64,000 nt of DNA from Escherichia phage muut, in the sequence record NC_052657.1; one strand, given 5' to 3'. The number at the start of each line of letters is the position of its first letter. The stretch's first letter is position 1. Position numbers and translations under genes: made by a program. Positions 9,556 to 44,397 of this stretch are shown in pieces. The notes under the pieces are model-generated. The model saw only the letters and a list, made by a program, of their open reading frames with translations. It searched no databases and had not been told where the DNA came from.

Positions 9556-9565
9556 TCTAGTATAA

Positions 9566-9585: not shown

Positions 9586-9595
9586 AGGAGGAGAT

Positions 9596-10024: not shown

Positions 10025-10523
10025 GTATGATCGTCCACCAACTGATTACTATCCTACTCCACAAAAATGTATAAATGCATTATTTAGTGTAATAGATTTT
10101 AATAACCTTAAAGAAGAAGGTTTTATTTTTGCAGAACCGTGTAAAGGCGCTGCTGCTGCAATTTATCAACATTTTCCAGAAGGATCAGAATATTGTGAGT
10201 TAGAAGAAGGGAAGGATTATTTTAACCACGAATGGCATACTAAGCCGGATATTATAATCACAAATCCACCATTCAGACTTGCACTTGAGTTCTTGCAAAA
10301 GAGCTTAAAAGAAGCAGACGTTTGCATATACTTGTTGCGTCTTGGGTTCCTAGAGTCTATTAAACGAAGGGAATTCCATAAACAGAACCCACCAACAAAT
10401 TTGATTGTTCTTTCTGAACGACCATCTTTTGTTGCAGGTGGTACTGATAAGACAGCATATGCTTGGTACGTCTACGACCCAAAAAACAGGCTGGGTTTAA
10501 CTCAACCTTTCTATTTTGTTTAA
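10014..10523 (+). CDS. dam: DNA N6-adenine methyltransferase (small phage Dam type)
   Basis: 169 aa; IITNPPF motif IV; YYPTP N-terminal segment. Confidence 0.6.
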   Translation: MANKYDRPPTDYYPTPQKCINALFSVIDFNNLKEEGFIFAEPCKGAAAAIYQHFPEGSEYCELEEGKDYFNHEWHTKPDIIITNPPFRLALEFLQKSLKEADVCIYLLRLGFLESIKRREFHKQNPPTNLIVLSERPSFVAGGTDKTAYAWYVYDPKNRLGLTQPFYFV

Positions 10524-10536
10524 GAGGAGCATTTTT

Positions 10537-10767
10537 ATGACCGAGAAATTTATTGTTACTATGGAACTCACCTTTGATGAAGAAGATTTTGATCTTCACG
10601 TATCAACTAAAGCAGATAACATTCACACGACACAGAGTGTTGCAATCGCTATGTTCTTTAAGCAAGCAATTGCAAAACAAGCTGAAGTGTGTGCTGGTTT
10701 AGCTGTAGAGTACGCAGAAGTTGTCAAGGTTCTTGAAAGTGCTCGCAACAACGATTGGGATGAATAA
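10537..10767 (+). CDS. hypothetical protein (76 aa)
   Basis: ATG with AAGAGGAG RBS 21 nt inside ORF-track ORF. Confidence 0.45.
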   Translation: MTEKFIVTMELTFDEEDFDLHVSTKADNIHTTQSVAIAMFFKQAIAKQAEVCAGLAVEYAEVVKVLESARNNDWDE

Positions 10768-32021: not shown

Positions 32022-32369
32022 GATAATCTCCTCTCATCGTTAGTCATCTTTCATGGCAATCATCAATCACCAACATCATACGATCAATCTTAGGGAATTA
32101 CAATCGAATTATCATAGGGGATTCCTATCAATTATTCTATATATACCTATTATTTTTAACACACCCCTTTGTACATAATATAGACAAATAAATATCTATG
32201 CCACAAAAATTTTCTGGTATACCCGATTTATTTCGACACACCCCCTTTTCATAAGCGTAAAGTCAATAATATCAATAACTTGCCGCAAAATACTGCTCGC
32301 TTGCGAGAGGTGCTTAACGCGATTTTCAGCGCCCCGCGATTTTTCCCGACCGTCCCCCTCAAATATCAA

Positions 32370-32400
32370 TGAGAATAATTATCATTTGCATTATCATTCA
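32370..32400. repeat. Fur-box-like palindrome
   Basis: GAGAATAATTATCATTTGC, 14/19 to GATAATGATAATCATTATC. Confidence 0.35.
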
Positions 32401-32554
32401 ATGACTTATAAGACTTTTGATTATTTTCTGAGCAAGAAAGGTACTACTCACAACAAAACAGATAAATTCTAAGTAAATCAATGGCTTGGCAAGTCTAAAC
32501 ATCTATATACACCTTGCCAAATGAAATGATCTGGCGTGAAATAGTGCTACCCGT

Positions 32555-32580
32555 GGAAGATAGCTGATAATGATTATCAT
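32555..32580. repeat. Fur-box-like palindrome
   Basis: GATAATGATTATCATTTGC, 16/19 to Fur consensus. Confidence 0.45.
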
Positions 32581-33107
32581 TTGCATATTTTCTATACTAT
32601 AAAACGCACTAAAAATCAAGATAATTCTGATTTATTGCGCTTTTAAGAAAGTAGGCTCAACAAATAGGCTATAACTATGCTCAACAAATAACAATAATAG
32701 TATGAAAAATCATTTATTCAGATATAAATAATTTTGCGCAATAGTAGTAATATTTTTCTTGACAAGAAAGATTTCTTTGTGTTCACATAGCGCCCCCTGG
32801 AAGGTGGCGCATTATGATCATCAATGTCATTATTCACCATGTTTATTATTGCATAGCTTATTATTTAGCTTATATTATAGCCAATGTTCTAAACACTAGC
32901 TAATAATAACGCACCGCAACAATGTAAGGGATACAATATACCATGTATATTGTTGCGCTTGCAATTGTTGCAAGCTACATAAGCACAAATAATAACTATC
33001 GGTGATGGTTATTATGTGGGGTGTGTAGTTGCGTTATTATTAGCCGCCTATGTGTCCGGCATAGGCTGCTAATGATACGCTTGCGAATTATATTTCTTGT
33101 TATAGTT

Positions 33108-33175
33108 ATTGTATGAAATGATTACCACATGAAATGGTTACTGTATGCAATGATTACTGTATGAAATGATTAGTT
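33108..33175. repeat. four tandem ~16-bp direct repeats (iteron-like)
   Basis: GTATGAAATGATTAC / CATGAAATGGTTAC / GTATGCAATGATTAC / GTATGAAATGATTAG. Confidence 0.55.
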
Positions 33176-33189
33176 AGGTAATAAATAGG

Positions 33190-33470
33190 AAGGTAAAGGT
33201 TAGATCATAAATAGATAGGATATGAATTATTTAGTAATGTTACTAACGATTTAATAGTTACTTTGTGCAATAATTCGATAGATTATAGTTATAGTTTTAA
33301 AGGTTAGATAGATTATATTTAGCTTAGTAATGATTTATATTAGTTATTGTTGTTTAATATAAGGTTATCAATGAGATAGTAACAGTAAGTTATAAATAAA
33401 GGTTAGATAATTAGTTTTAATTTAGTTAGATAACTTATTATTTTATAGGTTAGATGGTCATAAGTTAAGA
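33190..33470. repeat. dispersed AAAGGTTAGAT repeats (4-5 copies)
   Basis: Copies near 33196, 33297, 33408, 33434, 33446 in AT-rich context. Confidence 0.45.
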
Positions 33471-33545
33471 ATGATTATCATTATTGCATTATGCAGCTTA
33501 TTGCATAAATAATCAGCTATAAATAAGAATGATTATCATTTAAGA
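33465..33545. repeat. two Fur-box-like palindromes
   Basis: AGAATGATTATCATTATTG and AAATAAGAATGATTATCAT; second is near-identical to 43383-43405. Confidence 0.45.
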
Positions 33546-33733
33546 GGAAAGACAAGAAAAAGGCTGTTTTTGCCAGATAGTTGCATGAAGAAATTAAAAA
33601 TAAGCGGTCTAAAACACGTTGTAAGCGCCTTATGATCTTCATGGTATGGTTGTTCATCTGCTCCTTGATTAGCTCGATACCGCGATCTATTCACTTTTTT
33701 CGGTGAACGTTTTTGATAGGTAAAAGCTATCAT
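33536..33733 (-). CDS. hypothetical basic protein (65 aa), doubtful
   Basis: ORF at edge of non-coding region, poor RBS. Confidence 0.25.
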   Translation of the reverse strand: MIAFTYQKRSPKKVNRSRYRANQGADEQPYHEDHKALTTCFRPLIFNFFMQLSGKNSLFLVFPLK

Positions 33734-33744
33734 CTTTATTTAGG

Positions 33745-33771
33745 TAAAAAGAAAGGGCGCAATAAGCGCCC
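33745..33771 (-). terminator. rho-independent terminator
   Basis: GGGCGC-TTATT-GCGCCC then TTTCTTTTT on minus strand. Confidence 0.55.
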
Positions 33772-33787
33772 TTGTTTGAAATGTTAT

Positions 33788-34171
33788 TTACTGATAAGCA
33801 GGATCGTTTGTTATATCAATCCAATGAGCTAAATTAATTTTATTTTTTGCTTTCATTTTCTCGATCAAACGTTCGGCTAATGTCTCGGAACGAATATAAA
33901 CATAATCGCTAAAATCTTGCCCCGTTTCTTCGTCGATCATTTCCCTATATTCAACCTTGCCGATAAACGCATGATTCAGCGCATAAGTTTTACCCGTGTA
34001 CCAGTTGTGTAAATGAATCTCGCATTTATAATCGTCGCTATAACCTTCGGTTGTTCTAACTTCAACCAAGTCACCTTTAAACACTGATAAGCACCACATA
34101 GGATCATGATCTACAGCGCCGTTAAAATCTTTACCGTTTACAGTCGCTGCCAGGTTGATGATATTGCTCAT
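33788..34171 (-). CDS. hypothetical protein (127 aa)
   Basis: AGGAatcacc RBS. Confidence 0.5.
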   Translation of the reverse strand: MSNIINLAATVNGKDFNGAVDHDPMWCLSVFKGDLVEVRTTEGYSDDYKCEIHLHNWYTGKTYALNHAFIGKVEYREMIDEETGQDFSDYVYIRSETLAERLIEKMKAKNKINLAHWIDITNDPAYQ

Positions 34172-34246
34172 GGTGATTCCTCGTTTACCGTTTAAAATTG
34201 TTTGCCCTACACGATAACTATAAATTAACAGAGGCTATAAAGCAAG

Positions 34247-34477
34247 TTATTTTTCATAGAATTTTTCTACTGTGATATTCTTCCCAGTGGGATTAGCTAC
34301 TTTCAAAATTTTATCATGTACTGGACGCCCAAAAGAATAAGATCCGTATACAGTAAACCAATAATCGCCGTCAGGCTGTACTATTACCGCCGCATATGGT
34401 ACGCCTTTTTCGTTATTGCTGACAGAATAGATCACATTGCCGTTCAGAGCCACAGCGCGTTTAATTTGTTCGATCAT
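34247..34477 (-). CDS. hypothetical protein (76 aa)
   Basis: ATG with AGGA RBS downstream of hairpin; ORF-track N-terminus translates the hairpin (GGKWFPA). Confidence 0.5.
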   Translation of the reverse strand: MIEQIKRAVALNGNVIYSVSNNEKGVPYAAVIVQPDGDYWFTVYGSYSFGRPVHDKILKVANPTGKNITVEKFYEK

Positions 34478-34496
34478 GATATGATTCCTATATTGA

Positions 34497-34555
34497 GCGG
34501 GAAACCACTTCCCGCCTACGTGATACATCTTAGTATAAGGGCGATCCGGTGTCAA
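34497..34555 (-). promoter_or_regulatory. promoter plus stem-loop cassette
   Basis: TTGACA-17-TAAGAT then GCGGGAAACCACTTCCCGC hairpin. Confidence 0.55.
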
Positions 34556-34904
34556 TAGGTGAGATTGTAAAGATTTGATAGTTTATTTCTTTAATGTTTT
34601 GTTGTTTGATAGGTGGAAGCTATCAATATATAATAAGATCGTCCGGTGATTATCTTCCCCTGCTCCCAGGTGCCGCCCGTTCCATAATAATAATCAAAAG
34701 CAGGATAAAAGGCAAGATAAAAAGCAAATTATTTCCTATGTGCTTTAAACGCTCTAAATAGTTTTATAACAGCTTTTTCATCCTGGCAAGGTGATTAGTC
34801 ATTGTTACCTTGTTTAAGCGGTTATAATCGGTTTTAGGCTGTTTTACGCCACCTTTTACGTTTATTCTTTACGTGTTACTTCCATCGTGAAAAAAGAATA
34901 CAAA

Positions 34905-34934
34905 AAAGGGCGCTTAGTGCGCCCCTTTCTTTTA
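34905..34934. terminator. rho-independent terminator (bidirectional)
   Basis: GGGCGC-TTAGT-GCGCCC flanked by A-run and T-run. Confidence 0.5.
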
Positions 34935-34941
34935 CCGTGTA

Positions 34942-35331
34942 TTAATATTCGTTATAATACATTGCTAACTTTTCATCAAAAGCCGATTGACGATCTGCAT
35001 ACTCCCAAAACATTTCCTGATCCTGTTGTTCGTCATCGTCCATCATATTAAATTGCGCAACCTCCTGGTAAGTGATCGCCATATTATAACGATAGGTGAT
35101 CTCTTCTGCGATGTTTTCCGGTAAAGATGATTCTACACTGTCTAACAGCATATTTAACATCATTTCAGCCGCTTTTTCATCATTATCAAAGCAGTAAGCA
35201 GACCATGCCGCATGATGTTTATTTTTCATCTTTGCAATCAAGCCGTTGACTAAAAAAGGCGCTACGTTGTTAACGATACCCTGTAAAGATTGAAATTTTT
35301 CAACGTTAGAAACAGAAACCAGGTTGCGCAT
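34942..35331 (-). CDS. hypothetical acidic protein (129 aa)
   Basis: ATG downstream of hairpin; ORF-track start lies in hairpin loop. Confidence 0.5.
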   Translation of the reverse strand: MRNLVSVSNVEKFQSLQGIVNNVAPFLVNGLIAKMKNKHHAAWSAYCFDNDEKAAEMMLNMLLDSVESSLPENIAEEITYRYNMAITYQEVAQFNMMDDDEQQDQEMFWEYADRQSAFDEKLAMYYNEY

Positions 35332-35354
35332 AGTATTTACCTTTTTGATTACCT

Positions 35355-35413
35355 GGCGGGAAACCATTTCCCGCCTACGTGGTAAATAGTACCATATTGG
35401 GGATCGGTGTCAA
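35355..35413 (-). promoter_or_regulatory. promoter plus stem-loop cassette
   Basis: TTGACA-16-TACTAT then GGCGGGAAATGGTTTCCCGCC. Confidence 0.55.
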
Positions 35414-35419
35414 TACTTT

Positions 35420-35806
35420 TTATTCAATATAAATCAAATTATCTTCACCAATGTAAGCATGCACCGATGGCATTAATTTAGCTGCATTTGTTAGGCGGTT
35501 GGCGGTGTTAGTAGTGTATATTTCAGGGCGATCCCAAAAGCCTACGCCGTGACCGTTACGGGTGAAATGTAAGTCATTCCCGATCTGGTTTGCTGTTGCG
35601 CCGTCGCTCATTGCCTCAGAGATAGCAGCATCATTGGCATCACAATAAGCCGCTACGTCATGAATGATCCGCTGATGGGCTTGATCTGAAAAATCATAAT
35701 CGTCTAAGTTATCAATAAAATTACCTTCATGATCCCTAGCTGATTCAGCAAAAATAAAGGCTTCTTTATAACCGTTGATGATTTCAATAATGATTTCTGT
35801 TTTCAT
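35420..35806 (-). CDS. hypothetical protein (128 aa)
   Basis: ATGA overlap with upstream gene. Confidence 0.5.
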   Translation of the reverse strand: MKTEIIIEIINGYKEAFIFAESARDHEGNFIDNLDDYDFSDQAHQRIIHDVAAYCDANDAAISEAMSDGATANQIGNDLHFTRNGHGVGFWDRPEIYTTNTANRLTNAAKLMPSVHAYIGEDNLIYIE

Positions 35807-36018
35807 GCTGTACGCTCGACAATAATAATGGTTTGCGGTATCTCGTTTTCTACTACTAACAAGGCTTTTTTCTGTGTGATAGATATTTTAACACGTTGTA
35901 AAGTAGCGGTAAAATCTTTCATTTCATTATGCGCGGATTTAGTGCAATGCCAGATCTCAGGCTTACCTATTTGCAAGCCGCGTAAAAATTCTGTTTTACC
36001 TGTCTTATTCGTGATCAT
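35803..36018 (-). CDS. hypothetical protein (71 aa)
   Basis: ATG with AAGGTG RBS. Confidence 0.45.
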   Translation of the reverse strand: MITNKTGKTEFLRGLQIGKPEIWHCTKSAHNEMKDFTATLQRVKISITQKKALLVVENEIPQTIIIVERTA

Positions 36019-36028
36019 TTGATTCACC

Positions 36029-36133
36029 TTATCCAATACCGTGGGAAGATAGGATCATGTTAGCCATAGTTGCAACCAATCCAACCGACAACGCCAGGCC
36101 AACTATTACAACCGTGAAAATTTTCTCTAACAT
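36029..36133 (-). CDS. small hydrophobic peptide (34 aa)
   Basis: GAGGG RBS; own promoter/hairpin upstream; single TM-like segment. Confidence 0.4.
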   Translation of the reverse strand: MLEKIFTVVIVGLALSVGLVATMANMILSSHGIG

Positions 36134-36151
36134 GATTCTACCCTCATTAAT

Positions 36152-36213
36152 GGGCGTTGCCTTATTGCCCCGCCCTATGTCGTACACTTTACCAGATAAC
36201 CGCGTATTGTCAA
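36152..36213 (-). promoter_or_regulatory. promoter plus stem-loop cassette
   Basis: TTGACA-16-TAAAGT then GGGCG...CGCCC hairpin. Confidence 0.5.
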
Positions 36214-36214
36214 A

Positions 36215-36409
36215 CTATTTTTTATAAGGGATCAGTAAACTTCTTGCTACCGCTTCACGTAAACCTTCCCTTTTTATCAGGTCTATTGTTGCAGGGTGGC
36301 AAGTAAAAGCCTTTGACCATTTTTGATCACCTGGTTTACGGGCGAAAATGTAAACTTCTCCGTCGATTTCATCCCAACGAGTATTGCTTGTTAGTTTTTT
36401 AAGCGCCAT
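36215..36409 (-). CDS. hypothetical protein (64 aa)
   Basis: ATG downstream of hairpin. Confidence 0.5.
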   Translation of the reverse strand: MALKKLTSNTRWDEIDGEVYIFARKPGDQKWSKAFTCHPATIDLIKREGLREAVARSLLIPYKK

Positions 36410-36432
36410 GCTGATTTCTCTTTTAGTTGTGA

Positions 36433-36488
36433 GCGGCACTATTGCCGCCCTACGAAATACATTCTACCCGATTTATAATTGTTGTCAA
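36433..36488 (-). promoter_or_regulatory. promoter plus stem-loop cassette
   Basis: TTGACA-16-TAGAAT then GCGGCA-ATAG-TGCCGC hairpin. Confidence 0.55.
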
Positions 36489-36489
36489 A

Positions 36490-36759
36490 CTATTTTTTCA
36501 AGCTCGACCAGTCAAAACACGGGGCGATCTCGTTAAAACTTGTACCCTGTAAAGCACATAATTTTTTAGCAATAGCCGCCGTAACCTGGCGTTGTACGCG
36601 CGGATCTGCTACTGATTGGAGAAAATAGGCGGTTTTATATGTGATCATGCTTTCGCCTGTTTCCTTGTTAACGTGGTGCACGGTTTTAGCCTTATCATCT
36701 TTTACCAGGGTGTAACCGGATTCGATGGCCTTGATTGCAACGTCCAAAGATATTTTCAT
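36490..36759 (-). CDS. hypothetical protein (89 aa)
   Basis: AAGAGG RBS. Confidence 0.5.
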   Translation of the reverse strand: MKISLDVAIKAIESGYTLVKDDKAKTVHHVNKETGESMITYKTAYFLQSVADPRVQRQVTAAIAKKLCALQGTSFNEIAPCFDWSSLKK

Positions 36760-36778
36760 GATTTACCTCTTTATTGAC

Positions 36779-36799
36779 GGCGGGGAATACTCCCCCGCC
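36779..36799 (-). promoter_or_regulatory. intercistronic stem-loop (no promoter)
   Basis: GGCGGGGGAGTATTCCCCGCC between upstream stop and RBS. Confidence 0.45.
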
Positions 36800-36806
36800 T
36801 TATTAA

Positions 36807-36977
36807 TTACTCTTCATCGTCGCCGTTATAGTATTCAATGCCGTTTTCATCGGTTACGGTGATGTTAACGCCACCAATAGCAACACGATCACGGGCAAAC
36901 GTCATGGCTTCATTTAAATCTTCAGACCAAAAAATATTGTGACCTTTGCGCGATACATAAAACATAGTTGGGATCAT
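36807..36977 (-). CDS. hypothetical protein (56 aa)
   Basis: ATG downstream of hairpin. Confidence 0.45.
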   Translation of the reverse strand: MIPTMFYVSRKGHNIFWSEDLNEAMTFARDRVAIGGVNITVTDENGIEYYNGDDEE

Positions 36978-37000
36978 GATTTGTTTCTCTTCTGTTATGA

Positions 37001-37057
37001 GCGGCACTATTGCCGCCCTATGTGATAAACTTTACTACGTTGTTTGCCTAGTGTCAA
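37001..37057 (-). promoter_or_regulatory. promoter plus stem-loop cassette
   Basis: TTGACA-17-TAAAGT then GCGGCA-ATAG-TGCCGC. Confidence 0.55.
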
Positions 37058-37058
37058 A

Positions 37059-37343
37059 TTATTTTTTAATGTTTTGCCCTACAAAATTAATCACTTCCTT
37101 AAGCTGTTTCTCAGTCATGATCGTGCCTGGCAATTCTTCTTTGATTTCTTCCGGTAGATAGATATTACCGCGCCAGGTTAATAAACAACCGTTTTGATCT
37201 TCGCAGATAGAATAAGAGAAGATCCACTCATTATCATTCTCAAGCTCCCAAAAGCACAAAAAATCTTCTTTCCCCAGGTTTTCAACGGTTAAACATAAGC
37301 CGCGACGTGCTGCATAGTTGGAAAGTGCTTTTGTGATCTTCAT
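37059..37343 (-). CDS. hypothetical protein (94 aa)
   Basis: AAGAGA RBS. Confidence 0.5.
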   Translation of the reverse strand: MKITKALSNYAARRGLCLTVENLGKEDFLCFWELENDNEWIFSYSICEDQNGCLLTWRGNIYLPEEIKEELPGTIMTEKQLKEVINFVGQNIKK

Positions 37344-37363
37344 AGCTTATCTCTTCTTTTAAG

Positions 37364-37425
37364 GCGGGGAAACCATTTCCCCGCTCTATGAGATACAATA
37401 TACTACCCGTTCGGTGTGCTGTCAA
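37364..37425 (-). promoter_or_regulatory. promoter plus stem-loop cassette
   Basis: TTGACA-17-TATATT then GCGGGGAAATGGTTTCCCCGC. Confidence 0.55.
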
Positions 37426-37749
37426 TCAATAATCTTCAATATTTTCTACATTGACAAAAGCATGTTTATTTTCTAAGTTTTCGCCGTACCATTGCCCCAT
37501 GTTGATTTCTGCGGTGCGCAACCAGGACATGCCGCGCTCTATCTTTTTACTTGCAATCTCGATCCGGCTTTTGCATAGTGCTTTCGCTTGCAATGTAAAA
37601 ACACTATTGCCCTGTAATGCTTCCAGGTCATCATGTGCAAGGCGATACTCTTTAAAGCCTGATTCTATCATTTCAATCGCATCAAGGAAACGAGCGCGAT
37701 GATAGAAAAAATCAGAGTTATCCAAATAAACACCGATCACAGATTTCAT
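37426..37749 (-). CDS. hypothetical protein (107 aa)
   Basis: ATG with AAGGG RBS 60 nt inside ORF-track ORF. Confidence 0.5.
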   Translation of the reverse strand: MKSVIGVYLDNSDFFYHRARFLDAIEMIESGFKEYRLAHDDLEALQGNSVFTLQAKALCKSRIEIASKKIERGMSWLRTAEINMGQWYGENLENKHAFVNVENIEDY

Positions 37750-37759
37750 AATTTTACCC

Positions 37760-37820
37760 TTTTGTTTGCGGCCTTTGCCGTTTTCAAGATATAGTTTAAA
37801 GCATAACAAAAAATTGTCAA
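37760..37820 (-). promoter_or_regulatory. promoter with short stem-loop
   Basis: TTGACA-16-TAAACT; CGGC-AAAG-GCCG hairpin. Confidence 0.4.
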
Positions 37821-37849
37821 GCCTTTAAAGCGTACAACTATAAAACCTA

Positions 37850-37969
37850 TTAAAACACAATGCATAACAACATGGCTATAGTAGCAATACAACATAAAGC
37901 CATGCTTGTTTTCCTTCCTTCCTCGTATGCTGGATTTATTACGCTATATTGTACGGGAATAATTTTCAT
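37850..37969 (-). CDS. small hydrophobic peptide (39 aa)
   Basis: AAGGA RBS; Cys-rich hydrophobic C-terminus. Confidence 0.3.
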   Translation of the reverse strand: MKIIPVQYSVINPAYEEGRKTSMALCCIATIAMLLCIVF

Positions 37970-38078
37970 GCTGTTTCCTTAATGTCTTAAAACGTGGTTT
38001 ACAATAGAAACAAGTATACAGAAGAAAAAAGATCCTGACAATAAGATCCCGAAAAATAAATGTAAATAGGGCATGGTT

Positions 38079-38381
38079 TTACTCCTTAAAAAAATCATTG
38101 ACAATTAAACTGATAACGCCCAGCACCAGATCACCAGGTAGCGCCGCGCTTTCGTTGTTGCTTGTTTGCACTTCCTCACTAGTACCAGCATGATAGATTG
38201 CATGGTAAGCAATAGTACAATAACCTTTCGTTATTTCTTTAAGATTAATGATTAGCACGTTATTTGTTTCATCTTGAAACAATTTAGCGGTGATAGTATT
38301 GTTTTCTTTTACACTATCGACTTTTATTGATGGATCATTTACACCAGAAAAAAGAAAAAACGTTTTAGCTATGCCGTTCAT
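38079..38381 (-). CDS. hypothetical protein (100 aa)
   Basis: GGAG RBS. Confidence 0.5.
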   Translation of the reverse strand: MNGIAKTFFLFSGVNDPSIKVDSVKENNTITAKLFQDETNNVLIINLKEITKGYCTIAYHAIYHAGTSEEVQTSNNESAALPGDLVLGVISLIVNDFFKE

Positions 38382-38428
38382 GTAGTTCTCCTTTGTTGTG
38401 TGTATCTTATAACGTGCTTTCTATGTTG

Positions 38429-38830
38429 TCAATCTTTTATCTCGGTGCATTTTGCTAGGGTATACGTTGCAAGTGCTGACACTAGTTTTTCATTGCTACG
38501 ATCTGCGGCTGTACTGTGTACTTTTTGAATACTTTTTAACCACGGCGTAAAATTTTGAGTAGTCAGCACACTGGTAATAATTTCACATGGCACATCTTCA
38601 TTTAAGCCGTTAACAATAGACTTATCTATTTTTGCCGTTAGTTGTGTAACAGCACCATAAGCGATCATGTGTGAATCCTCCATGATTTCATCGGGGATCG
38701 CATTATTAATAAGCATGACGTTTTCCATTGCATCAACGGCGCTTAATTCTGCTACTGTGGAGGATATCGCCGCGCTAGATGTTCCAACCATGCCAAAATA
38801 GATTAAACCAGCGATCAATAAGTTTTTCAT
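38429..38830 (-). CDS. secreted/periplasmic protein with signal peptide (133 aa)
   Basis: ATG with GAGG RBS; N-terminal MKNLLIAGLIYFGMVGTSSA signal-like segment. Confidence 0.5.
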   Translation of the reverse strand: MKNLLIAGLIYFGMVGTSSAAISSTVAELSAVDAMENVMLINNAIPDEIMEDSHMIAYGAVTQLTAKIDKSIVNGLNEDVPCEIITSVLTTQNFTPWLKSIQKVHSTAADRSNEKLVSALATYTLAKCTEIKD

Positions 38831-38838
38831 TTCTTGCC

Positions 38839-39021
38839 TCATATATGTTTTATTGAGATTATATTGTCACTATATACAACGTTTTTCAACGTGTCAATAA
38901 AAATCTTATTGCCTTCAATCCCCAGGATCACGCCGCTAGTTATGAAGCCATATTGATCACGATATCGGGCGCATAACCTTTGCCCCTGGGCTAGTGCCTT
39001 GCTTATTTCGTCTAATTTCAT
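38839..39021 (-). CDS. hypothetical protein (60 aa)
   Basis: GGAG RBS. Confidence 0.45.
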   Translation of the reverse strand: MKLDEISKALAQGQRLCARYRDQYGFITSGVILGIEGNKIFIDTLKNVVYSDNIISIKHI

Positions 39022-39115
39022 TTTTAAAGCTCCTGTAAAGCTGTCTAACGTGGTTTATAGGCTTATCCTGGCGTTACCATTGCCTATGGGTAACAAGCCT
39101 CTATATAAGCTAAAA

Positions 39116-39139
39116 GGGCGCTTATTGCGCCCTTTTTTG
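39116..39139. terminator. rho-independent terminator (bidirectional)
   Basis: GGGCG-CTTATTG-CGCCC with T-run. Confidence 0.5.
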
Positions 39140-39277
39140 TTATTCGTTCCAGTATCTTTTTGTGCTGCGATCTCTTTTTGTTTTGTTCCGCTTATCGCCT
39201 TTTTTGGTGATCTCTTCGTTCCAATTTTTACGCGCCTTGCTGCGGTTGAATTTTTCGATCTGCTGTGATGCGTTCAT
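39140..39277 (-). CDS. small basic protein (45 aa)
   Basis: AAGGA RBS; Lys/Arg rich; plus-strand ORFs here look spurious. Confidence 0.4.
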   Translation of the reverse strand: MNASQQIEKFNRSKARKNWNEEITKKGDKRNKTKRDRSTKRYWNE

Positions 39278-39292
39278 GTTTTTTCCTTTTAA

Positions 39293-39652
39293 TCACGCCA
39301 CGTTATGCTGTTTTGCCAGGGTTACGATCATGCTTGCAATATATAACCAATAATTTTCCCGCTCACGGGTAACGGTTGTTTCTCTGCTTGTTTCTTTTAT
39401 GTACTTCCATTCAATTAACAAGTGATCGATCTCGTTATAATCAAAAGCAATATTGATTTCTGACGGTAAACCTTGTAACCAGGAGGCTATCGCCTTGATC
39501 ATGTTATGATTGTAACGTTTTTGATTATCGGGATACCAGTATTCAGAATTAAAACGGCGCATCAGTTCGGTGATTTTTTCTTTTTCGGTTGTAGTACCAT
39601 CAAAAGAAATAGCCGACAAAATGTAAGTTTTAATTGCTTTTGCTGATTTCAT
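39293..39652 (-). CDS. hypothetical protein (119 aa)
   Basis: AAAGAG RBS after hairpin. Confidence 0.5.
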   Translation of the reverse strand: MKSAKAIKTYILSAISFDGTTTEKEKITELMRRFNSEYWYPDNQKRYNHNMIKAIASWLQGLPSEINIAFDYNEIDHLLIEWKYIKETSRETTVTRERENYWLYIASMIVTLAKQHNVA

Positions 39653-39673
39653 AATCTTATCTCTTTATTGATG

Positions 39674-39732
39674 GCGGGAAACCATTTCCCGCCGTTGTTG
39701 TTACTTTACTTATAAATGATGCTACTGTCAAG
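39674..39732 (-). promoter_or_regulatory. promoter plus stem-loop cassette
   Basis: TTGACA-18-TAAAGT then GGCGGGAAATGGTTTCCCGCC. Confidence 0.55.
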
Positions 39733-39738
39733 CGAATA

Positions 39739-39909
39739 TTATTTATTTTTTAACGTTAATGTTCCCAGCTTATCAGCGTGACGCAGACCAGGAAAGATCC
39801 ATTTTCCTGATTCATCTTTCACCGGGGCTTTAAGCGTAGCGCCCAGGTTGGCGGCGTTAACTTTACGTGCAACGTTGCGAGCGGCTTCACGGGTGGCGAA
39901 AGTGATCAT
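39739..39909 (-). CDS. small protein (56 aa)
   Basis: GAGGA RBS after hairpin; below ORF-track cut-off. Confidence 0.45.
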   Translation of the reverse strand: MITFATREAARNVARKVNAANLGATLKAPVKDESGKWIFPGLRHADKLGTLTLKNK

Positions 39910-39932
39910 GATGTTTCCTCTTCTCTTTGTTA

Positions 39933-39993
39933 GGCGGTGGGCTATTCCACCGCCTTAATGAATATAGTTTACTGATTTTAGTTATCTTGTCAA
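39933..39993 (-). promoter_or_regulatory. promoter plus stem-loop cassette
   Basis: TTGACA-16-TAAACT then GGCGGTGG-AATAGC-CCACCGCC. Confidence 0.55.
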
Positions 39994-40001
39994 GATTATT
40001 T

Positions 40002-40229
40002 TTAGTTTAATCCATCCAGGCACAACAAGCGATCAACGTTTAGATCGGTTAGGCTAATCGTTGGCACCTGGTAGGATTCGATGTACTCAACGCTCGACCA
40101 TTGCCCAAAGTTAGCGACCGCCCAGCTATTCAAGGAGGAGTGAAGATCATCCCCTTTCTTCTCTGTGATAACTGCTACTACCTGAGAGATTCCAACCGTA
40201 CCGGATACGCGAACAATAACGATAGCCAT
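40002..40229 (-). CDS. hypothetical protein (75 aa)
   Basis: AAAGG RBS after hairpin. Confidence 0.5.
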   Translation of the reverse strand: MAIVIVRVSGTVGISQVVAVITEKKGDDLHSSLNSWAVANFGQWSSVEYIESYQVPTISLTDLNVDRLLCLDGLN

Positions 40230-40251
40230 AATGATAACCTTTCTTTGATTT

Positions 40252-40312
40252 GGCGGGAAACCATTTCCCCGCCTTATGTGATAAACTATACCAGATTAAA
40301 AAACGTTGTCAA
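40252..40312 (-). promoter_or_regulatory. promoter plus stem-loop cassette
   Basis: TTGACA-16-TATAGT then GGCGGGGAAATGGTTTCCCGCC. Confidence 0.55.
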
Positions 40313-40321
40313 CTGCTTTTA

Positions 40322-40561
40322 TTACATTCCTACCATAGCGGCGCGGATACTGGTTTTACTGAATTTATAGCCATCTGGCGTAGTATTTTCGCCCATTTCG
40401 TTAAGTAGTGACATCATTTCACGCGCGGCGTTATCTTTATTGTTGTTCACGGCTATAAATTCTTTTGCCATATTATAAAAACCTGGATCGTTATTAATCC
40501 AAAGGCTTACATTCCAATGAGTTTTATTTTTGTGACCGTTGTACATTTTAGATTTAGCCAT
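40322..40561 (-). CDS. hypothetical protein (79 aa)
   Basis: AAGAG RBS after hairpin. Confidence 0.5.
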   Translation of the reverse strand: MAKSKMYNGHKNKTHWNVSLWINNDPGFYNMAKEFIAVNNNKDNAAREMMSLLNEMGENTTPDGYKFSKTSIRAAMVGM

Positions 40562-40585
40562 GATGTTAATCTCTTTTTCAGTGAG

Positions 40586-40644
40586 GCGGGAACTATTCCC
40601 GCTCTCGATGTAAACTATTATACAGTACTAAGATACTTTGTCAA
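40586..40644 (-). promoter_or_regulatory. promoter plus stem-loop cassette
   Basis: TTGACA-16-TATAAT then GCGGGAATAGTTCCCGC. Confidence 0.6.
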
Positions 40645-40647
40645 TAC

Positions 40648-40923
40648 TTAAGTATTGTAAATGTCGTGAATAGTGATAAAGTTTTTACGACCGTAAACAT
40701 GTAAATCAGTATCAATGTAGTGCTTATCAAGTACATCCTCGACGCTTAACGCGGTGTCGTGAATATCTTCGTAGAATTGAGGATCTACAATCTTACTTAA
40801 ATCATCCGGCGTTAACTTATCATTAAGCCATTGAACCGCCTGGATATCTGCTTCACGTTTCCAGTCTTCCAGGTTAGTAGTCAGTACTTGTTCGATTTCG
40901 TTAGCTGTCAGTAGAATCCGCAT
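40648..40923 (-). CDS. hypothetical protein (91 aa)
   Basis: GGAA RBS. Confidence 0.5.
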   Translation of the reverse strand: MRILLTANEIEQVLTTNLEDWKREADIQAVQWLNDKLTPDDLSKIVDPQFYEDIHDTALSVEDVLDKHYIDTDLHVYGRKNFITIHDIYNT

Positions 40924-40956
40924 TTTAATGTTTCCTTATCAGTGGTTGATGTAAGT

Positions 40957-40984
40957 ATTATACTCGTTTACTTTCTATTGTCAA
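40957..40984 (-). promoter_or_regulatory. sigma70-like promoter
   Basis: TTGACA-16-TATAAT. Confidence 0.55.
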
Positions 40985-40994
40985 ACTATTTTAT

Positions 40995-41100
40995 CAGGGG
41001 GAGTTTTTCGTGTGCCTTACTCCTGGGCTACTTAACGGGGTGTTACTTCGTTCCCCCGTCCTGATATGAAACATTTTACGCTTTTTATTCGTGCTGTCAA
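40995..41100 (-). promoter_or_regulatory. second promoter followed by double stem-loop
   Basis: TTGACA-16-TAAAAT, then ACGGGG...CCCCGT and GGAGT...ACTCC hairpins. Confidence 0.45.
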
Positions 41101-41106
41101 TGCTTT

Positions 41107-41472
41107 TTATAAATCTTTTTTACGTTTAACATCGCTTGCATGGCTGTATACAGCGATCCCATTGTCACGGCAAAAACGGGAAAGATACGCGCCGCGTGAA
41201 AACTCTTTACCTTCCAGGTTGATAACCTTGCTAAACTCTTCTAGGGCAACGGTATCAAAATGATCCCCGTATCCATATTGGAACGGCACGTTTACCACTT
41301 CGATCAGTTTACCGCCGATCTCAACGTCAACCATCAAAGAGAAATAAGTATTACCATAAGACTTTTGAAACCAGCGACGGGCGCTAATATGCACCGCTTC
41401 AATGCTGGATAGTTCAATTTTAGCCGTGTTAGCCAGGGTAGCATAAGCGGAAACATTAATATTTTTAGCCAT
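41107..41472 (-). CDS. hypothetical protein (121 aa)
   Basis: AGGA RBS. Confidence 0.5.
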   Translation of the reverse strand: MAKNINVSAYATLANTAKIELSSIEAVHISARRWFQKSYGNTYFSLMVDVEIGGKLIEVVNVPFQYGYGDHFDTVALEEFSKVINLEGKEFSRGAYLSRFCRDNGIAVYSHASDVKRKKDL

Positions 41473-41509
41473 GATTTTATTCCTTAGTAACGCTTCAATT
41501 TATATAAGC

Positions 41510-41537
41510 ATTATAGCTTACTGATTTCAGTTGTCAA
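41510..41537 (-). promoter_or_regulatory. sigma70-like promoter
   Basis: TTGACA-16-TATAAT. Confidence 0.55.
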
Positions 41538-41558
41538 GTGATTTTTTATTTCACCTTT

Positions 41559-41615
41559 GAGGGGGTTGCCCCGCTCTATGTGGTACATATTACGGGGCTT
41601 GTTTGCATATGTCAA
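41559..41615 (-). promoter_or_regulatory. promoter plus stem-loop cassette (tandem with 41510-41537)
   Basis: TTGACA-17-TAATAT then GAGCGGGGCAACCCCCTC. Confidence 0.45.
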
Positions 41616-41618
41616 GCC

Positions 41619-42173
41619 TTACACAATGCAATTTTCATAATTTTTTAAGGCTTGTATTTTTTCCTCTTCTGTCGGCCTATATGGCTGGATCTCTTCCTCT
41701 TCCAGGGTGGGCATGATTTCTTCCTCTTCCTCCTGGTCGTCCTGGTCTTCCTCTTGCGCTATGGTAACAAGTTTATTGATCTTCTCCTGGGCTTTAATCA
41801 ATTTTGCATCTAGCACCATTTTAGCGGTGTTGTATACAGTCCATGCCATGCGCTTTTCTTCGTATGCCTTATCTAGTGCGGCTAATTTAGCGGGATACTC
41901 TTCTAACACCTTAAAAGCCGGATCAATGCTATATAAGGGATTATTTTTAGCATCATCGCTTGGATCTGCGGCGCTTGCAATGTCAGCGTTACCATTTGCC
42001 AGCCAACCAGGGCGAACGGATCGCGCCTTTGTGTTGCCGTTGCTCTTTGCCGCTCGATTTCCTATCTGCTCCCCGCTATACCCTACCATGTGATCGATCA
42101 TTTCATCTGGTATTATGCGCGGATCATTAGCGTCATGCTTTACCCATGACTGGATCACATATTCACGCCCCAT
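41619..42173 (-). CDS. hypothetical protein with acidic C-terminus (184 aa)
   Basis: ORF overlapping upstream gene end. Confidence 0.5.
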   Translation of the reverse strand: MGREYVIQSWVKHDANDPRIIPDEMIDHMVGYSGEQIGNRAAKSNGNTKARSVRPGWLANGNADIASAADPSDDAKNNPLYSIDPAFKVLEEYPAKLAALDKAYEEKRMAWTVYNTAKMVLDAKLIKAQEKINKLVTIAQEEDQDDQEEEEEIMPTLEEEEIQPYRPTEEEKIQALKNYENCIV

Positions 42174-42435
42174 GTTCGTTCGCCTCTTCTGTTAGTAGTT
42201 TACATACCTTAAACATGCTTGCCGCATCTTTTGACGGTAGCCAGCCTATCCGATACACTCCAGGATCTGGATTAGTTATATCAGTTAGTTGCGCGTTGCG
42301 ATGATTAAAAATAGTGTAACCGCCGCCAGCACGGGGATAAACATTATCTTTAAACCTGATAGCGTATCTCGCCAGGTCGAACGTTGTAGCATGTTCAAAA
42401 GCGATCACATTATCAAAAACTTTTAGAAAAAACAA
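42163..42435 (-). CDS. hypothetical protein (90 aa)
   Basis: TTG start with GGGGAGG RBS. Confidence 0.45.
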   Translation of the reverse strand: MFFLKVFDNVIAFEHATTFDLARYAIRFKDNVYPRAGGGYTIFNHRNAQLTDITNPDPGVYRIGWLPSKDAASMFKVCKLLTEEANEHGA

Positions 42436-42437
42436 GA

Positions 42438-42584
42438 TTATCCTCCCCAGCGTTTAAAGCCCGTTGCACGGTTGTTTTTTAGCTCTCGTTTTAGTCTCTT
42501 GCAACGGTTTACAAGTGCAAACCGTGCCGGAGTCGTAACAGTAGCGCCGTTTTTGGTGTGAATACTCATTACATATTGTTTCAT
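42438..42584 (-). CDS. small basic protein (48 aa)
   Basis: ATG after hairpin; stop overlaps RBS of next gene. Confidence 0.4.
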   Translation of the reverse strand: MKQYVMSIHTKNGATVTTPARFALVNRCKRLKRELKNNRATGFKRWGG

Positions 42585-42604
42585 AAAGTTTTATCCTATG
42601 TAAG

Positions 42605-42656
42605 CGGGAACTATTCCCGCTTTAAGATAGCTTATCAGGTTTTAGTGCAACGTCAA
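42605..42656 (-). promoter_or_regulatory. promoter plus stem-loop cassette
   Basis: TTGACG-16-TAAGCT then GCGGGAATAGTTCCCGC. Confidence 0.5.
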
Positions 42657-42690
42657 CCGTTTTTTTAATCTTTTTTCATTTCTTTTTTGC

Positions 42691-42744
42691 TTGCTATCTA
42701 TAAAGGAAACGGCTATTATCTTTCTACCGCGCCAACCAGGGCGC
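42691..42744 (+). promoter_or_regulatory. divergent promoter plus stem-loop (plus strand)
   Basis: TTGCTA-17-TATTAT then GCGCC-AACCAG-GGCGC hairpin. Confidence 0.45.
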
Positions 42745-42766
42745 ACATCAAAGAAAGGGCGATACC

Positions 42767-43033
42767 ATGACAAATACCCCTTTACATCTCATGCACTCAT
42801 TGGGCTGGCAAGGCGGCACGGTGCACCAGGTAGCAAGCGCAACGGGCTTAAAGGTTGAAACCGTTCTCAACCTGGGCGATCATAAGGTGGAAGAAATAGA
42901 TCATTTTGATACGTTCGCAAATGGTTATCTATGGGCTTGCAGTGGCGGCGGGGAAAGCAAGATCCCGCCAGGGGCGCGGGGCGACATGTATTTTTGGTTA
43001 GGTGTCCTATCCTGGCAAGAAAACAAAAAATAA
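42767..43033 (+). CDS. hypothetical protein (88 aa)
   Basis: AAGGG RBS; lone plus-strand gene between minus blocks. Confidence 0.5.
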   Translation: MTNTPLHLMHSLGWQGGTVHQVASATGLKVETVLNLGDHKVEEIDHFDTFANGYLWACSGGGESKIPPGARGDMYFWLGVLSWQENKK

Positions 43034-43035
43034 TC

Positions 43036-43064
43036 TTGACAAGCCCAGGGATCGGGCTTATACT
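43036..43064 (+). promoter_or_regulatory. sigma70-like promoter
   Basis: TTGACA-17-TATACT. Confidence 0.5.
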
Positions 43065-43070
43065 GTTTTA

Positions 43071-43170
43071 CATACAGAAGAGGAAGCGCCACCCCCACGG
43101 CGTAAAGGCGGGGCTAACATACCAGGGCACTACTGGTTGGAAGGTTGATCGCCGGTAGCTCGTCTAAAAT
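43071..43170 (+). ncRNA. candidate small structured RNA
   Basis: GC-rich hairpin-rich ~100 nt after the promoter, with no ORF and no RBS. Confidence 0.25.
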
Positions 43171-43314
43171 AAATTTGTAAAGAAATGTAAAGATAAAAAT
43201 AATCGCTTGCTTTTGTTGTTGGTTATGCTATTCTTATTGTATGGCGAGGGGATACGGGAGCGCGAGACAAACACCACCCCTGCGCGTTATTCTCTAAATG
43301 AGAAAATTCTTATT

Positions 43315-43405
43315 TGGTAATGATTCTCATTCTCTTACTGAGAATGATTATCACTTACATAATTAAATGATAATGATTCTCATTTACAAATGAGAATGAT
43401 TATCA
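43315..43405. repeat. cluster of four Fur-box-like palindromes
   Basis: TAATGATTCTCATT, GAGAATGATTATCAC, GATAATGATTCTCAT, GAGAATGATTATCAT. Confidence 0.45.
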
Positions 43406-43430
43406 TCCGCACACCCATAAAAACACGAAA

Positions 43431-43631
43431 TTGAACTTTTCATTTTTGATTTTTCTACGGAAAAAGGCAAAAAAACTTTAAATAAACTGGGGAATTTTTA
43501 AAAAATTGAAGTTTTCATTTTCAAAATCTGGACAGAAATACATACAAAAACTTTAAATAATTTTGACCAAACTTGAACTTTTCATTTTCAAAATTTGTAG
43601 CCAAAAATCTGTAAAAACTTTAAATAATTTT
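43431..43631. repeat. three tandem ~62-67 bp direct repeats
   Basis: Each unit: TTGAA(C/G)TTTTCATTTT(C/T)(A/G)A(A/T)(A/T)T ... AAAAACTTTAAATAA. Confidence 0.55.
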
Positions 43632-43845
43632 ATCCTTTTTATAAAAATGATTTTACTGTTCTGTTATAAATAGTAGTTAAGAGATAATGTGTCTTTTAAA
43701 AGCCAGATAGCATAGTCCAACAAACAAATTAAATAATTTATTAACAGAGTACAGAATAATATTTACTCTGGATATATTATTCAGAGGGTGGATTTCCGTA
43801 CATGAAACCCACACCCCTTTTATAAAAATAAAAATTTTCAAAATA

Positions 43846-44397
43846 TCAGGAAATATCAGATTGTGTTTTTAGATAAACAGCAAGGTCTGTATGCCATTTT
43901 CCTAAAAGATTTTGTCCTTTCCAACAATCCTTGTTTTCAACATTACGATCCCACATCCCCATTTTGATACCATAAATAGAATCATAAGGGCTTGCCTCTA
44001 CGAACTCCTTATCTGCGTAAGCAATAAGTTTATTTTTGAGATCTTCATTTTGTGTGTATTTAAGATACAAACCACGTTCGACAATCTTCTCCCGTAAAGA
44101 AGTCCAGGTATCTTCATCATAATCCTTAACTAATCTACCTAGTCGCTTATAATATGCTTGTTCTTTTTCTCCTGTATATCTTAGATCTCCGGTTAAAATA
44201 GAAGATGCAATATTGTAATCATAAAACAAACATGCTTTTCTCCACATCATATATTGTTCCACACAAGTAAATTCAACATAACTTGTAATAGAATTATTAT
44301 ACTTGGGAGCTAAAGGTTCAATAAAAGATGATAGATACCAGTTGCTAAATTCATCTTTTGCCGAAAAGAAGAACACATACTTATCAGTAATCCGCAT
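43846..44397 (-). CDS. NADAR (YbiA-like) domain protein
   Basis: FSNW, EQYMMWRKACLF, KYTQNEDLKNKL...EASPYDSIYGIKMG, GQNLLGK segments align with the YbiA/NADAR fold. Confidence 0.7.
   Translation of the reverse strand: MRITDKYVFFFSAKDEFSNWYLSSFIEPLAPKYNNSITSYVEFTCVEQYMMWRKACLFYDYNIASSILTGDLRYTGEKEQAYYKRLGRLVKDYDEDTWTSLREKIVERGLYLKYTQNEDLKNKLIAYADKEFVEASPYDSIYGIKMGMWDRNVENKDCWKGQNLLGKWHTDLAVYLKTQSDIS

Follow-up and report, generated by a model that had tools for sequence, protein, structure and literature searches.

Why should a virulent phage carry, on both sides of a block of its own small genes, clusters of palindromes that read like the binding sites of its host's iron regulator? The question is raised by a 64,000-nucleotide stretch of Escherichia phage muut (NC_052657.1), referred to here as the window. 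The phage is a virulent Justusliebigvirus (phi92-like) coliphage, and in the window 19-mers resembling the enterobacterial Fur box are found in two non-coding regions, at 32.37-33.55 kb and 43.31-43.41 kb. A sequence-only reading of this DNA had offered three meanings for them: iron-responsive control through host Fur, binding sites for a phage regulator, or recombination boundaries of an acquired 9.9-kb module. In their sequence specificity the 19-mers are shown below to be Fur-type operators of consensus grade. The genome has defined ends, and the "9.9-kb block" between them is accordingly re-labelled as its terminal early region. The reading that is favoured, with a probability of about 0.5, is that these operators would be bound by host Fur and would act in cis on the borders of the phage's own early block.

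The clustering of the Fur-like palindromes proved to be stronger than had been stated. Eight boxes match the consensus GATAATGATAATCATTATC at 14 to 17 of 19 positions (32371, 15; 32566, 17; 33467, 16; 33525, 14; 43316, 16; 43340, 15; 43369, 16; 43392, 15). The core AATGATTATCAT, counted with at most one mismatch and with shuffled sequence as background, gives 14 matches where 1.18 are expected (largest shuffle, 4), and 12 of the 14 fall in 32374-33540 and 43319-43406. The comparison of a Fur matrix with shuffles, which had been suggested as a check, came out clearly: the ten best matches in the window of a matrix derived from E. coli Fur sites only are all in the two non-coding regions, at 14.3-23.5 bits, and there are 10 sites of at least 14 bits as against 0.39 in shuffles of the whole window (maximum 3). 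The sequence-only reading had also held that the palindromes occur only in these two regions. This is so for the top ten matrix matches but not for the consensus count, as matches of 15-16 of 19 are also present in coding DNA at 6658, 17855 and 56403, where the E. coli Fur matrix gives 11.3 bits or less. The last of these, a lone weak match (16/19, 10.3 bits) in plus-strand coding DNA at 56400-56431, lies beside a consensus DnaA box TTATCCACA at 56423 and is probably a chance occurrence.

With GC contents of 0.29 and 0.24 the two regions are very rich in AT, and the boxes could be looked upon as a chance product of such DNA. However, when the AT-rich non-coding DNA alone is shuffled, 0.04 sites of at least 14 bits are expected against 9 observed, and in two phage subfamilies the boxes are conserved while their flanks diverge.

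The true unit is a 19-bp palindrome of the form 9-1-9, the centre of which lies 3 bp from the register first read. In the phage it takes the form AATGAGAAT-n-ATT(C/A)TCATT. Diverged relatives keep boxes at the homologous place, next to a GC-rich non-coding stretch that is itself conserved, some of them as single perfect palindromes; thus the unit is identified as the 9-1-9 palindrome. The perfect palindrome AATGAGAAT-n-ATTCTCATT is the ancestral box. A seeming rule that all boxes share one orientation was rejected as an artefact of reading 6 bp off centre; in the palindrome register the asymmetric halves are found in both orientations. Most boxes of the window carry a second, weaker site that overlaps the first at a 6-bp offset (pairs 32368/32374, 32563/32569, 33464/33470, 43313/43319 and 43337/43343), the arrangement of the classical Fur box for two dimers.

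In the first region the double site F1, AATGAGAATAATTATCATT with its 6-bp-offset overlap, is at 32368-32392 (22.1 and 15.7 bits) and the double site F2, GCTGATAATGATTATCATTTGCATA, which has the match of 17/19 to the consensus, is at 32563-32587 (15.4 and 16.3 bits). They correspond to positions 266-290 and 71-95 of phi92, both within its direct terminal repeat (DTR). Site F3, GTTAAGAATGATTATCATT with a 6-bp-offset partner, is at 33464-33488 (14.3 and 10.9 bits) and is kept in the phages inny, Paula and phi92; site F4, AATAAGAATGATTATCATT, is at 33522-33540 (20.8 bits). The second region, termed NCR2, has an array at 43297-43410 with four strong sites, at 43313-43331, 43337-43355, 43366-43384 and 43389-43407 (16.9, 14.4, 23.5 and 18.9 bits), all of them paired with a second site at a 6-bp offset. 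There is also a fifth copy, at about 43299-43317, which a 1-bp deletion has made degenerate in the window and which is intact in phi92, where the equivalent region displays five sites of 14.4-23.5 bits at 136991-137102.

Are these palindromes Fur operators, or do they only look like them? Chen et al. 2007 (PMC2189734) describe a single-dimer 9-1-9 Fur box and clustered sites that overlap at 6 (or 3) bp, an offset that reflects dimers on opposite helix faces, and the 6-bp-offset pairs of the window agree with this cluster criterion. Approximately 200 kb of E. coli K-12 DNA around promoters listed by these authors as footprinted or gel-shifted Fur targets was scanned with a palindromic matrix made from 21 phage boxes only. 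Known Fur promoters account for all of the first 12 matches and for 16 of the first 18, namely those of ryhB, fecI, fhuF, oppA, fhuA, fepB/entC, exbB, cirA, fecA, fepD/entS and fepA/fes. In the reciprocal analysis, an expectation-maximisation search seeded only from 19-mers of 12 E. coli K-12 Fur promoters converged on AATGATAATCATTATCATT. The best site per training promoter scored 8-21.5 bits with this matrix, compared with 14.3-23.5 bits for the ten sites of the window, which was scanned with the phage base composition as background. The sole departure of the phage palindrome from the Fur consensus is at position +-4, the least informative in the Fur matrix (0.37 bit), and the natural operators of ryhB, fecI, fhuA and exbB share the phage variant ATTCTC/GAGAAT. 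Consensus sites for ArgR, IclR/KdgR, Lrp, RcsAB, Zur and LexA were also considered and set aside, their half-site spacing being different from that of the box.

The bacterial surroundings of the palindrome are similarly telling. The exact sequence AATGAGAATnATTCTCATT is found in at least 120 bacterial genomes from many phyla, among the matches listed. Pfam families were counted for the 99 open reading frames (ORFs) of 110 aa or more that read away from it, and the most frequent are iron or metal solute-binding proteins (8), TonB-receptor plug domains (7), proteins of the ZnuA/SitA type (6), FUR itself (6), ECF sigma factors (4) and the FTR1 iron permease (3). This gene set is the Fur regulon. 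The proposal of iron control through host Fur is thus strongly supported with respect to the sites, by the reciprocal matrices and the regulon flanks, and from these binding and function may be inferred; that host Fur occupies the phage arrays in vivo is considered quite probable.

The position of the sites on the phage genome can be read from phi92. The phi92 record annotates identical 343-bp direct terminal repeats (DTR-L 1-343, DTR-R 148270-148612), and in a blastn search this repeat aligns with window positions 32657 to 32315 with 97.7% identity. Thus the first non-coding region holds the physical end of the genome, and the block next to it is a terminal early region of about 11 kb and no acquired module. 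The terminal-repeat equivalent, 32315-32657, contains both F1 and F2 together with a sigma70-like promoter; on the virion the two double sites are at 54-78 and 249-273 bp when counted from the right end and at 71-95 and 266-290 bp when counted from the left. A search with the 31.5-34.5 kb stretch matched 218 phage records, the best of which are Justusliebigvirus and Phapecoctavirus (phi92/phAPEC8-like) coliphages with 92-96% identity. Several GenBank records marked UNVERIFIED, MG065639 "Campylobacter phage A150" and those of C3, A145 and A110a, are classified as Justusliebigvirus and are 94-97% identical to this coliphage group; because of this identity their Campylobacter host label is probably wrong.

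Minus-strand genes extend from about 20 to 48 kb in the window. Within them, the early-gene cassette block (33541-42435, minus strand) consists of about 25 small genes and corresponds to gp225-gp248 at the right terminus of phi92; its genes are, like these, early cassettes for host RNA polymerase. About 20 near-consensus sigma70 promoters of the type TTGACA-16/17-TATAAT are predicted on the minus strand, and most genes have a predicted promoter and stem-loop terminator of their own. The early block makes up the terminal 11.4 kb of the genome, or 7.7% of it, is transcribed towards the genome end, and has NCR2 as its inner border. F4 is located directly downstream of the last early gene and its terminator, a terminator-like hairpin being present at 33773-33753.

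These findings bear on the view that the boxes are leftover junction repeats of an acquired module. A direct repeat AAAT(A/G)AGAATGATTATCAT had been said to bracket the block, and it is indeed present, at 33521-33539 and 43388-43406, a few bases from where it had been placed. Its identity ends at the box edges, i.e., it represents two copies of the operator, and one of the two flanking regions is a genome terminus with a 343-bp repeat. The block is also richer in GC, as had been claimed, although only modestly so (0.402 for 33541-43300, compared with 0.368), and it is a mosaic whose cassettes are exchanged among phages. Its segment at about 40487-41402 is 88-93% identical to DNA of rV5-type phages and of unrelated jumbo phages (the 355-kb Escherichia phage A4, Salmonella SD-2_S15 and WPEC5), which indicates that single early cassettes have been exchanged horizontally in recent time. 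However, all 290 records that match have the block, always at one place, and its variation is internal, cassette by cassette; the block and its edge clusters keep the same place in every relative of two subfamilies. There is no relative without the block, no presence or absence polymorphism and no synteny breakpoint at the boxes. On these grounds, and with a difference in GC as small as this, the module hypothesis fails, and an origin of the boxes by chance or as module junctions is regarded as already refuted.

Comparison with relatives shows how the boxes have been retained. They occupy homologous places in the genomes of Justusliebigvirus, Phapecoctavirus, a Klebsiella relative, Seunavirus, Henunavirus and Certrevirus. 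In NCR2, phAPEC8 has four, the Klebsiella relative FBKp34 three and Cronobacter phage CR3 four, with a regular spacing of 29 bp in all three, and a single perfect 19-bp palindrome, AATGAGAATGATTCTCATT, is present in the Salmonella phage GEC_vB_MG (Seunavirus) and the Erwinia phage pEp_SNUABM_01 (Henunavirus). The Salmonella and Cronobacter phages also retain the second cluster, which lies at a distance of 10-12 kb, where the early genes have their other edge. One close relative was scanned over its complete genome (146 kb); 11 sites reach 14 bits or more, with 0.9 expected, and 10 of them are in the two clusters. The two-cluster layout is conserved across Stephanstirmvirinae and Vequintavirinae, the boxes being kept where the flanks have diverged. 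As distant relatives keep both clusters, the layout is ancient and under selection.

The same operator is present in phages that are unrelated to the phi92-like group. The exact palindrome was examined in 120 viral contigs, and in 40 of them three or more strong sites are present. One contig family is T5-like, with 451 matching records and the site inside the terminal repeat. T5 itself (NC_005859) has three strong Fur-type double sites at 9552-9715 (19.4, 23.9 and 20.3/17.6 bits). They are inside the annotated injection stop signal (iss, 9140-10149) and bracket the calculated shear point of first-step-transfer (FST) DNA at 9618. F1 (32368-32392) and T5 iss 9656-9680 are identical in 24 of 25 bases, and a comparison of the non-coding regions of the window with T5 iss revealed nothing in common beyond the Fur boxes. 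There is no mention of Fur in Davison's detailed catalogue of the palindromes and DnaA boxes of T5 iss; the Fur-box reading of these palindromes is an observation of the present analysis.

Fur-type boxes in T5-like phages have company. The non-coding array in the terminal repeat of the T5-like phage NBSal003 (5511-6060), a stretch which 451 T5-like records match, has five or six Fur-type boxes (18-23 bits), DnaA boxes (TTATCCACA/TTATCAACA) and a perfect LexA-type box, TACTGTACAAATATACAGTA; the array looks like a platform for pre-existing DNA-binding proteins of the host. An IMG/VR contig that has no match in the phage collection displays 11 Fur-type sites of at least 14 bits in clusters at 2118-2222, 7872-7940 and 10228-10708, also with DnaA boxes and a LexA-type palindrome beside the clusters. 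Neither DnaA nor LexA boxes were detected in either non-coding region of the window, though they co-occur with Fur boxes in T5-like phages.

A different binder has to be considered at this point, namely a dimeric protein encoded by the phage, such as a regulator of early or middle genes or a terminase small subunit, the latter at least where the copies of the terminal repeat are concerned; the likeness to Fur would then be coincidence or mimicry. The strongest conservation is in the outer arms, AATGAGA...TCTCATT, with some variation in the centre, and the 29-bp spacing of phAPEC8, FBKp34 and CR3 is more ordered than that of typical chromosomal Fur clusters. Packaging proteins bind in terminal repeats, where some of the sites are, and a small ORF, the 88-aa homolog of Phi92_gp224 (42767-43033, plus strand), lies beside NCR2. 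This ORF was considered as the box-binding protein and rejected: it has no Pfam match, its homologs are essentially confined to Stephanstirmvirinae, and it is missing from phages in which the boxes are kept, namely the relatives in Seunavirus, Henunavirus and Certrevirus (at the homologous site) and the T5-like phages. Against such a protein in general, the matrix made from phage boxes recovers almost exclusively Fur operators in E. coli DNA, the exact palindrome marks Fur regulons in bacteria, and neither this phage group nor the T5-like phages have a homolog of Fur. Two unrelated phage families would need proteins of the same specificity. Fur is, as far as is known, nearly invariant across the hosts of these phages. 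Since the unrelated phi92-like and T5-like phages share the operator and neither has a Fur homolog, a shared host protein is the most economical binder, and a phage-encoded one is very improbable. The sequence-only reading's second proposal is accordingly disfavoured.

If host Fur is the binder, what would it do there? The sites on the virion form three groups: two double sites in the terminal repeat flanking a promoter, two sites after the last early gene, and the array of four to five sites at NCR2. The promoter of the terminal repeat is predicted at 32492-32520 on the minus strand (TTGGCA-17-TAGACT; TTGACA-17-TAGACT in phi92) from a consensus scan and the phi92 DTR sequence. It points to genes of the gp001 type and is located between the two double sites, F2 being upstream of it and F1, at about +95 to +119, downstream. 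At NCR2 the order of elements is the same in four clades: promoter P1, an element of about 100 nt, a TGTAAAGA direct repeat, promoter P2, a leader of about 55 nt, the Fur array and three repeats of about 60 bp. The interval from P2 to the first box of the array is constant in all clades, the box being at about +55 to +75, and the array lies in the path of leftward transcription from the genes at 44-48 kb. Thus the succession of a predicted sigma70 promoter and strong sites occurs twice, from P2 to the first box and from the terminal-repeat promoter to F1.

In the window the elements that precede the array are all on the plus strand. P1, a predicted sigma70 promoter, is at 43036-43064 (TTGACA-17-TATACT, 11/12, with an embedded hairpin); its -35 and -10 hexamers are kept and its spacer varies in the four clades. 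It is followed by the GC-rich element A of about 100 nt (43065-43166), which is conserved at the DNA level as far as Salmonella, Erwinia, Cronobacter and Proteus phages, and by the direct repeat TGTAAAGAnnTGTAAAGA (43176-43193), invariant in the four-clade alignment. P2, a predicted sigma70-like promoter at 43207-43234 (TTGCTT-16-TATTCT), likewise has constant hexamers and a variable spacer in all clades and would fire towards the Fur array. Element B (ATGGCGAGGGG...GAGACAAACACC...), delimited by alignment, is the leader from P2 to the first Fur box (43241-43296); like element A it is GC-rich and highly conserved. Elements A and B each show one compensatory pair. An Rfam search of 31.5-44.5 kb at permissive thresholds gave only two sub-threshold small RNA matches, at 39.1 kb, and none in 43036-43296. 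The ORF gp009 that is annotated in phAPEC8 over the equivalent of 43036-43296 is probably spurious.

A role that fits this arrangement is that of a boundary. Pre-existing host Fur-Fe2+ would occupy the arrays upon DNA entry, and the arrays with their bound protein would be boundary operators or roadblocks, by which the early block, with its very strong transcription, would be insulated from neighbouring DNA. Transcription across the borders, from P2, from the terminal-repeat promoter or by read-through, would then depend on the iron of the cell and on the amount of Fur left per phage genome. Taken on its own, this boundary or roadblock role is tentative and is given rather less than an even chance. 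The probability of about 0.5 applies to the combined reading, i.e., Fur-type operators that host Fur would occupy, with an effect in cis at the early-block borders.

Several points weigh against this reading. In a consensus scan no strong promoter was found with its -35/-10 overlapping any of the boxes, and only weak 9/12 matches created by neighbouring boxes are seen there; the predicted promoters are 55-120 bp upstream of the boxes. An operator placed over the -35/-10 region is common for Fur, not obligatory, but repression from the positions found here would need a roadblock, upstream or downstream occupancy, or polymerisation, and for Fur this would be unusual. Both P2 and the promoter of the terminal repeat are predicted from sequence. 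The K-12 background scanned with the phage matrix was 200 kb chosen around known Fur promoters and not the whole genome. T5 destroys the DNA of its host early, and thus a purpose that works through host gene expression cannot be general. Finally, the location of sites in the terminal repeat, and in T5 at the injection stop, fits a role in DNA entry or packaging at least equally well.

This last point leads to a reading in which host Fur would be an architectural factor for DNA entry, end protection or packaging, with the arrays marking the terminus and the inner limit of the segment that enters first. The two double sites inside the 343-bp terminal repeat, so near to the right end, are in keeping with it. 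So is the size of the early block, which at 7.7% of the genome and bounded by a repeat-rich region with a Fur array resembles the FST DNA of T5, with 7.9% of the genome and three double sites in its iss. T5-like arrays lie beside DnaA and LexA-type boxes, and the FST stop is independent of new protein synthesis. Host factors have a precedent in phage control DNA in IHF at lambda cos (cosB) and attP; to our knowledge there is none for Fur as a structural or regulatory cofactor in such DNA. However, other records of the phi92-like group are treated as circularly permuted. The non-coding regions of the window are devoid of DnaA and LexA boxes, a cytoplasmic protein bound to incoming DNA is expected to pull the DNA in and not to stop its entry, and the Salmonella and Erwinia relatives keep a single NCR2 box only. 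An architectural role is regarded as unlikely.

A wider version joins elements of both. Fur would be a host factor for large virulent enterobacterial phages in general, the arrays defining the inner boundary and the end of early DNA that enters first and is driven by sigma70 promoters. The arrays of T5-like phages would be a functional part of the injection stop signal, and phi92/rV5-like phages would have an analogous mechanism of staged entry or boundary formation, tuned by the iron status of the cell or by the titration of available Fur onto replicating genomes. This generalization is speculative and its truth is thought quite improbable.

The number of sites suggests yet another use, as a sponge or titration timer. 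Replicating sites would titrate Fur and either de-repress iron uptake and Mn/Fe-sparing functions of the host, to the benefit of the phage's own iron-dependent enzymes, or relieve the phage's own blocked borders as copy number rises. Multicopy Fur boxes are able to titrate Fur (the FURTA principle). There are nine to ten strong sites per genome, mostly double and scoring at or above the best chromosomal operators, and a location outside promoters is the expected look of a pure decoy. However, a decoy needs no fixed positions, and the positions of the boxes relative to P2, the terminus and the block edges are conserved across subfamilies. The Salmonella and Erwinia phages have just one NCR2 box, and de-repression of host genes would be pointless in T5, where the host DNA is degraded early. 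A sponge is regarded as distinctly unlikely, and the action of bound Fur in cis on the early-block borders is preferred.

Some neighbouring features are described here for completeness. Between the terminal repeat and the early block, at 33100-33460, are four tandem units of the ATGAAATGATTAC type (about 33106-33170) with a Fur half-site, and four scattered AGGTTAGAT units; both kinds resemble iterons and could be packaging or replication signals. Beyond the NCR2 array are three direct repeats of about 60 bp (43410-43640), read from the sequence and entered as repeat_region in the inny record, each containing TTGAAC..TTTTCATTTT and AAACTTTAAATAA. The latter is similar to TATAAATA, the late promoter of the T4 type. 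Triple repeats of other sequence, followed by CAAATATC iterons, occupy the equivalent place in the phages of Salmonella, Erwinia and Cronobacter. The last early gene (33788-34171, minus strand) encodes a protein of the T4 gp30.8 family (PF06019). The first gene outside NCR2 (43846-44397, minus strand) encodes a YbiA-like NADAR-domain protein (PF08719, E=5e-36). Next to it is an ORF of 396 aa (44398-45588, minus strand) for a homing endonuclease, with a patchy distribution and 23-93% identity among relatives. Homologs are known from Vibrio phage ICP1 and from jumbo phages; the ORF is thus a mobile insertion adjoining NCR2, and for this reason was unusable as a synteny anchor. No tRNA genes were found in the window.

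The elements described here are of a known kind, the Fur operator, in a new arrangement and context: conserved arrays of consensus-grade operators in the terminal repeat and at the early-region borders of virulent phages, in two subfamilies and independently in T5-like phages. In a full-text literature search, all Fur boxes that were encountered on phages belonged to temperate ones and preceded cargo genes, sitABCD being an example. The searchable literature yielded no Fur sites for rV5-, phi92- or T5-like phages, which is no proof of their absence from the wider literature, and no published Fur binding or fur- or iron-dependent expression for these sites. If host Fur does bind, the phages would read or exploit the iron sensor of the host from the first seconds of infection, and this would be of relevance for phage therapy at iron-limited sites of infection. 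The finding also bears on the 50-year-old question of the arrest of T5 DNA transfer.

How do these sites compare with known systems? The phage palindrome is the same as the enterobacterial Fur box (GATAATGATAATCATTATC; PMC2189734) except at the least informative position, and shares with it the overlaps at a 6-bp offset and the clustering. Compared with footprinted Fur operators, the phage boxes have matrix scores that are equal or higher. The enterobacterial box, however, commonly sits over the -35/-10 region of an iron-gene promoter, whereas of the phage sites some are in the terminal repeat, some follow the last early gene and others are placed downstream of a promoter. The phage sites form arrays in non-coding DNA of a virulent phage, regularly spaced in several relatives.

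Fur boxes on temperate phages, such as that of stx1, are likewise sites for a host protein on phage DNA. A Fur box upstream of sitABCD has been described on lambdoid (temperate) phages (PMC6969025). In the temperate case a single operator serves a cargo or virulence gene of the prophage, whereas in the phi92-like phage arrays are found in control and terminal regions with no iron-related cargo nearby.

A further likeness is to phage systems in which an abundant, conserved DNA-binding protein of the host is used by non-coding DNA of the phage, as with IHF at lambda cosB and attP, or the DnaA boxes proposed for T5 iss. The difference is that the host protein in the phi92-like case would be Fur.

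There is also a likeness to the iss/Repeat Region 3 of T5, at the inner end of its FST DNA. Both T5 and the phi92-type phages have a terminal segment of about 8% of the genome with small genes and strong sigma70 promoters, and in both this segment is bounded by a non-coding region of about 1 kb that is rich in repeats and palindromes and carries strong Fur-type double sites. The phi92-type phages thus show the features of the T5 type, that is, defined ends, a terminal repeat, and a terminal early segment bounded by a repeat-rich non-coding region. However, T5 has a terminal repeat of 10 kb, DnaA boxes and nicks, as against a 343-bp repeat in the phi92-type and non-coding regions devoid of DnaA boxes in the window, and two-step entry has been demonstrated in T5 only.

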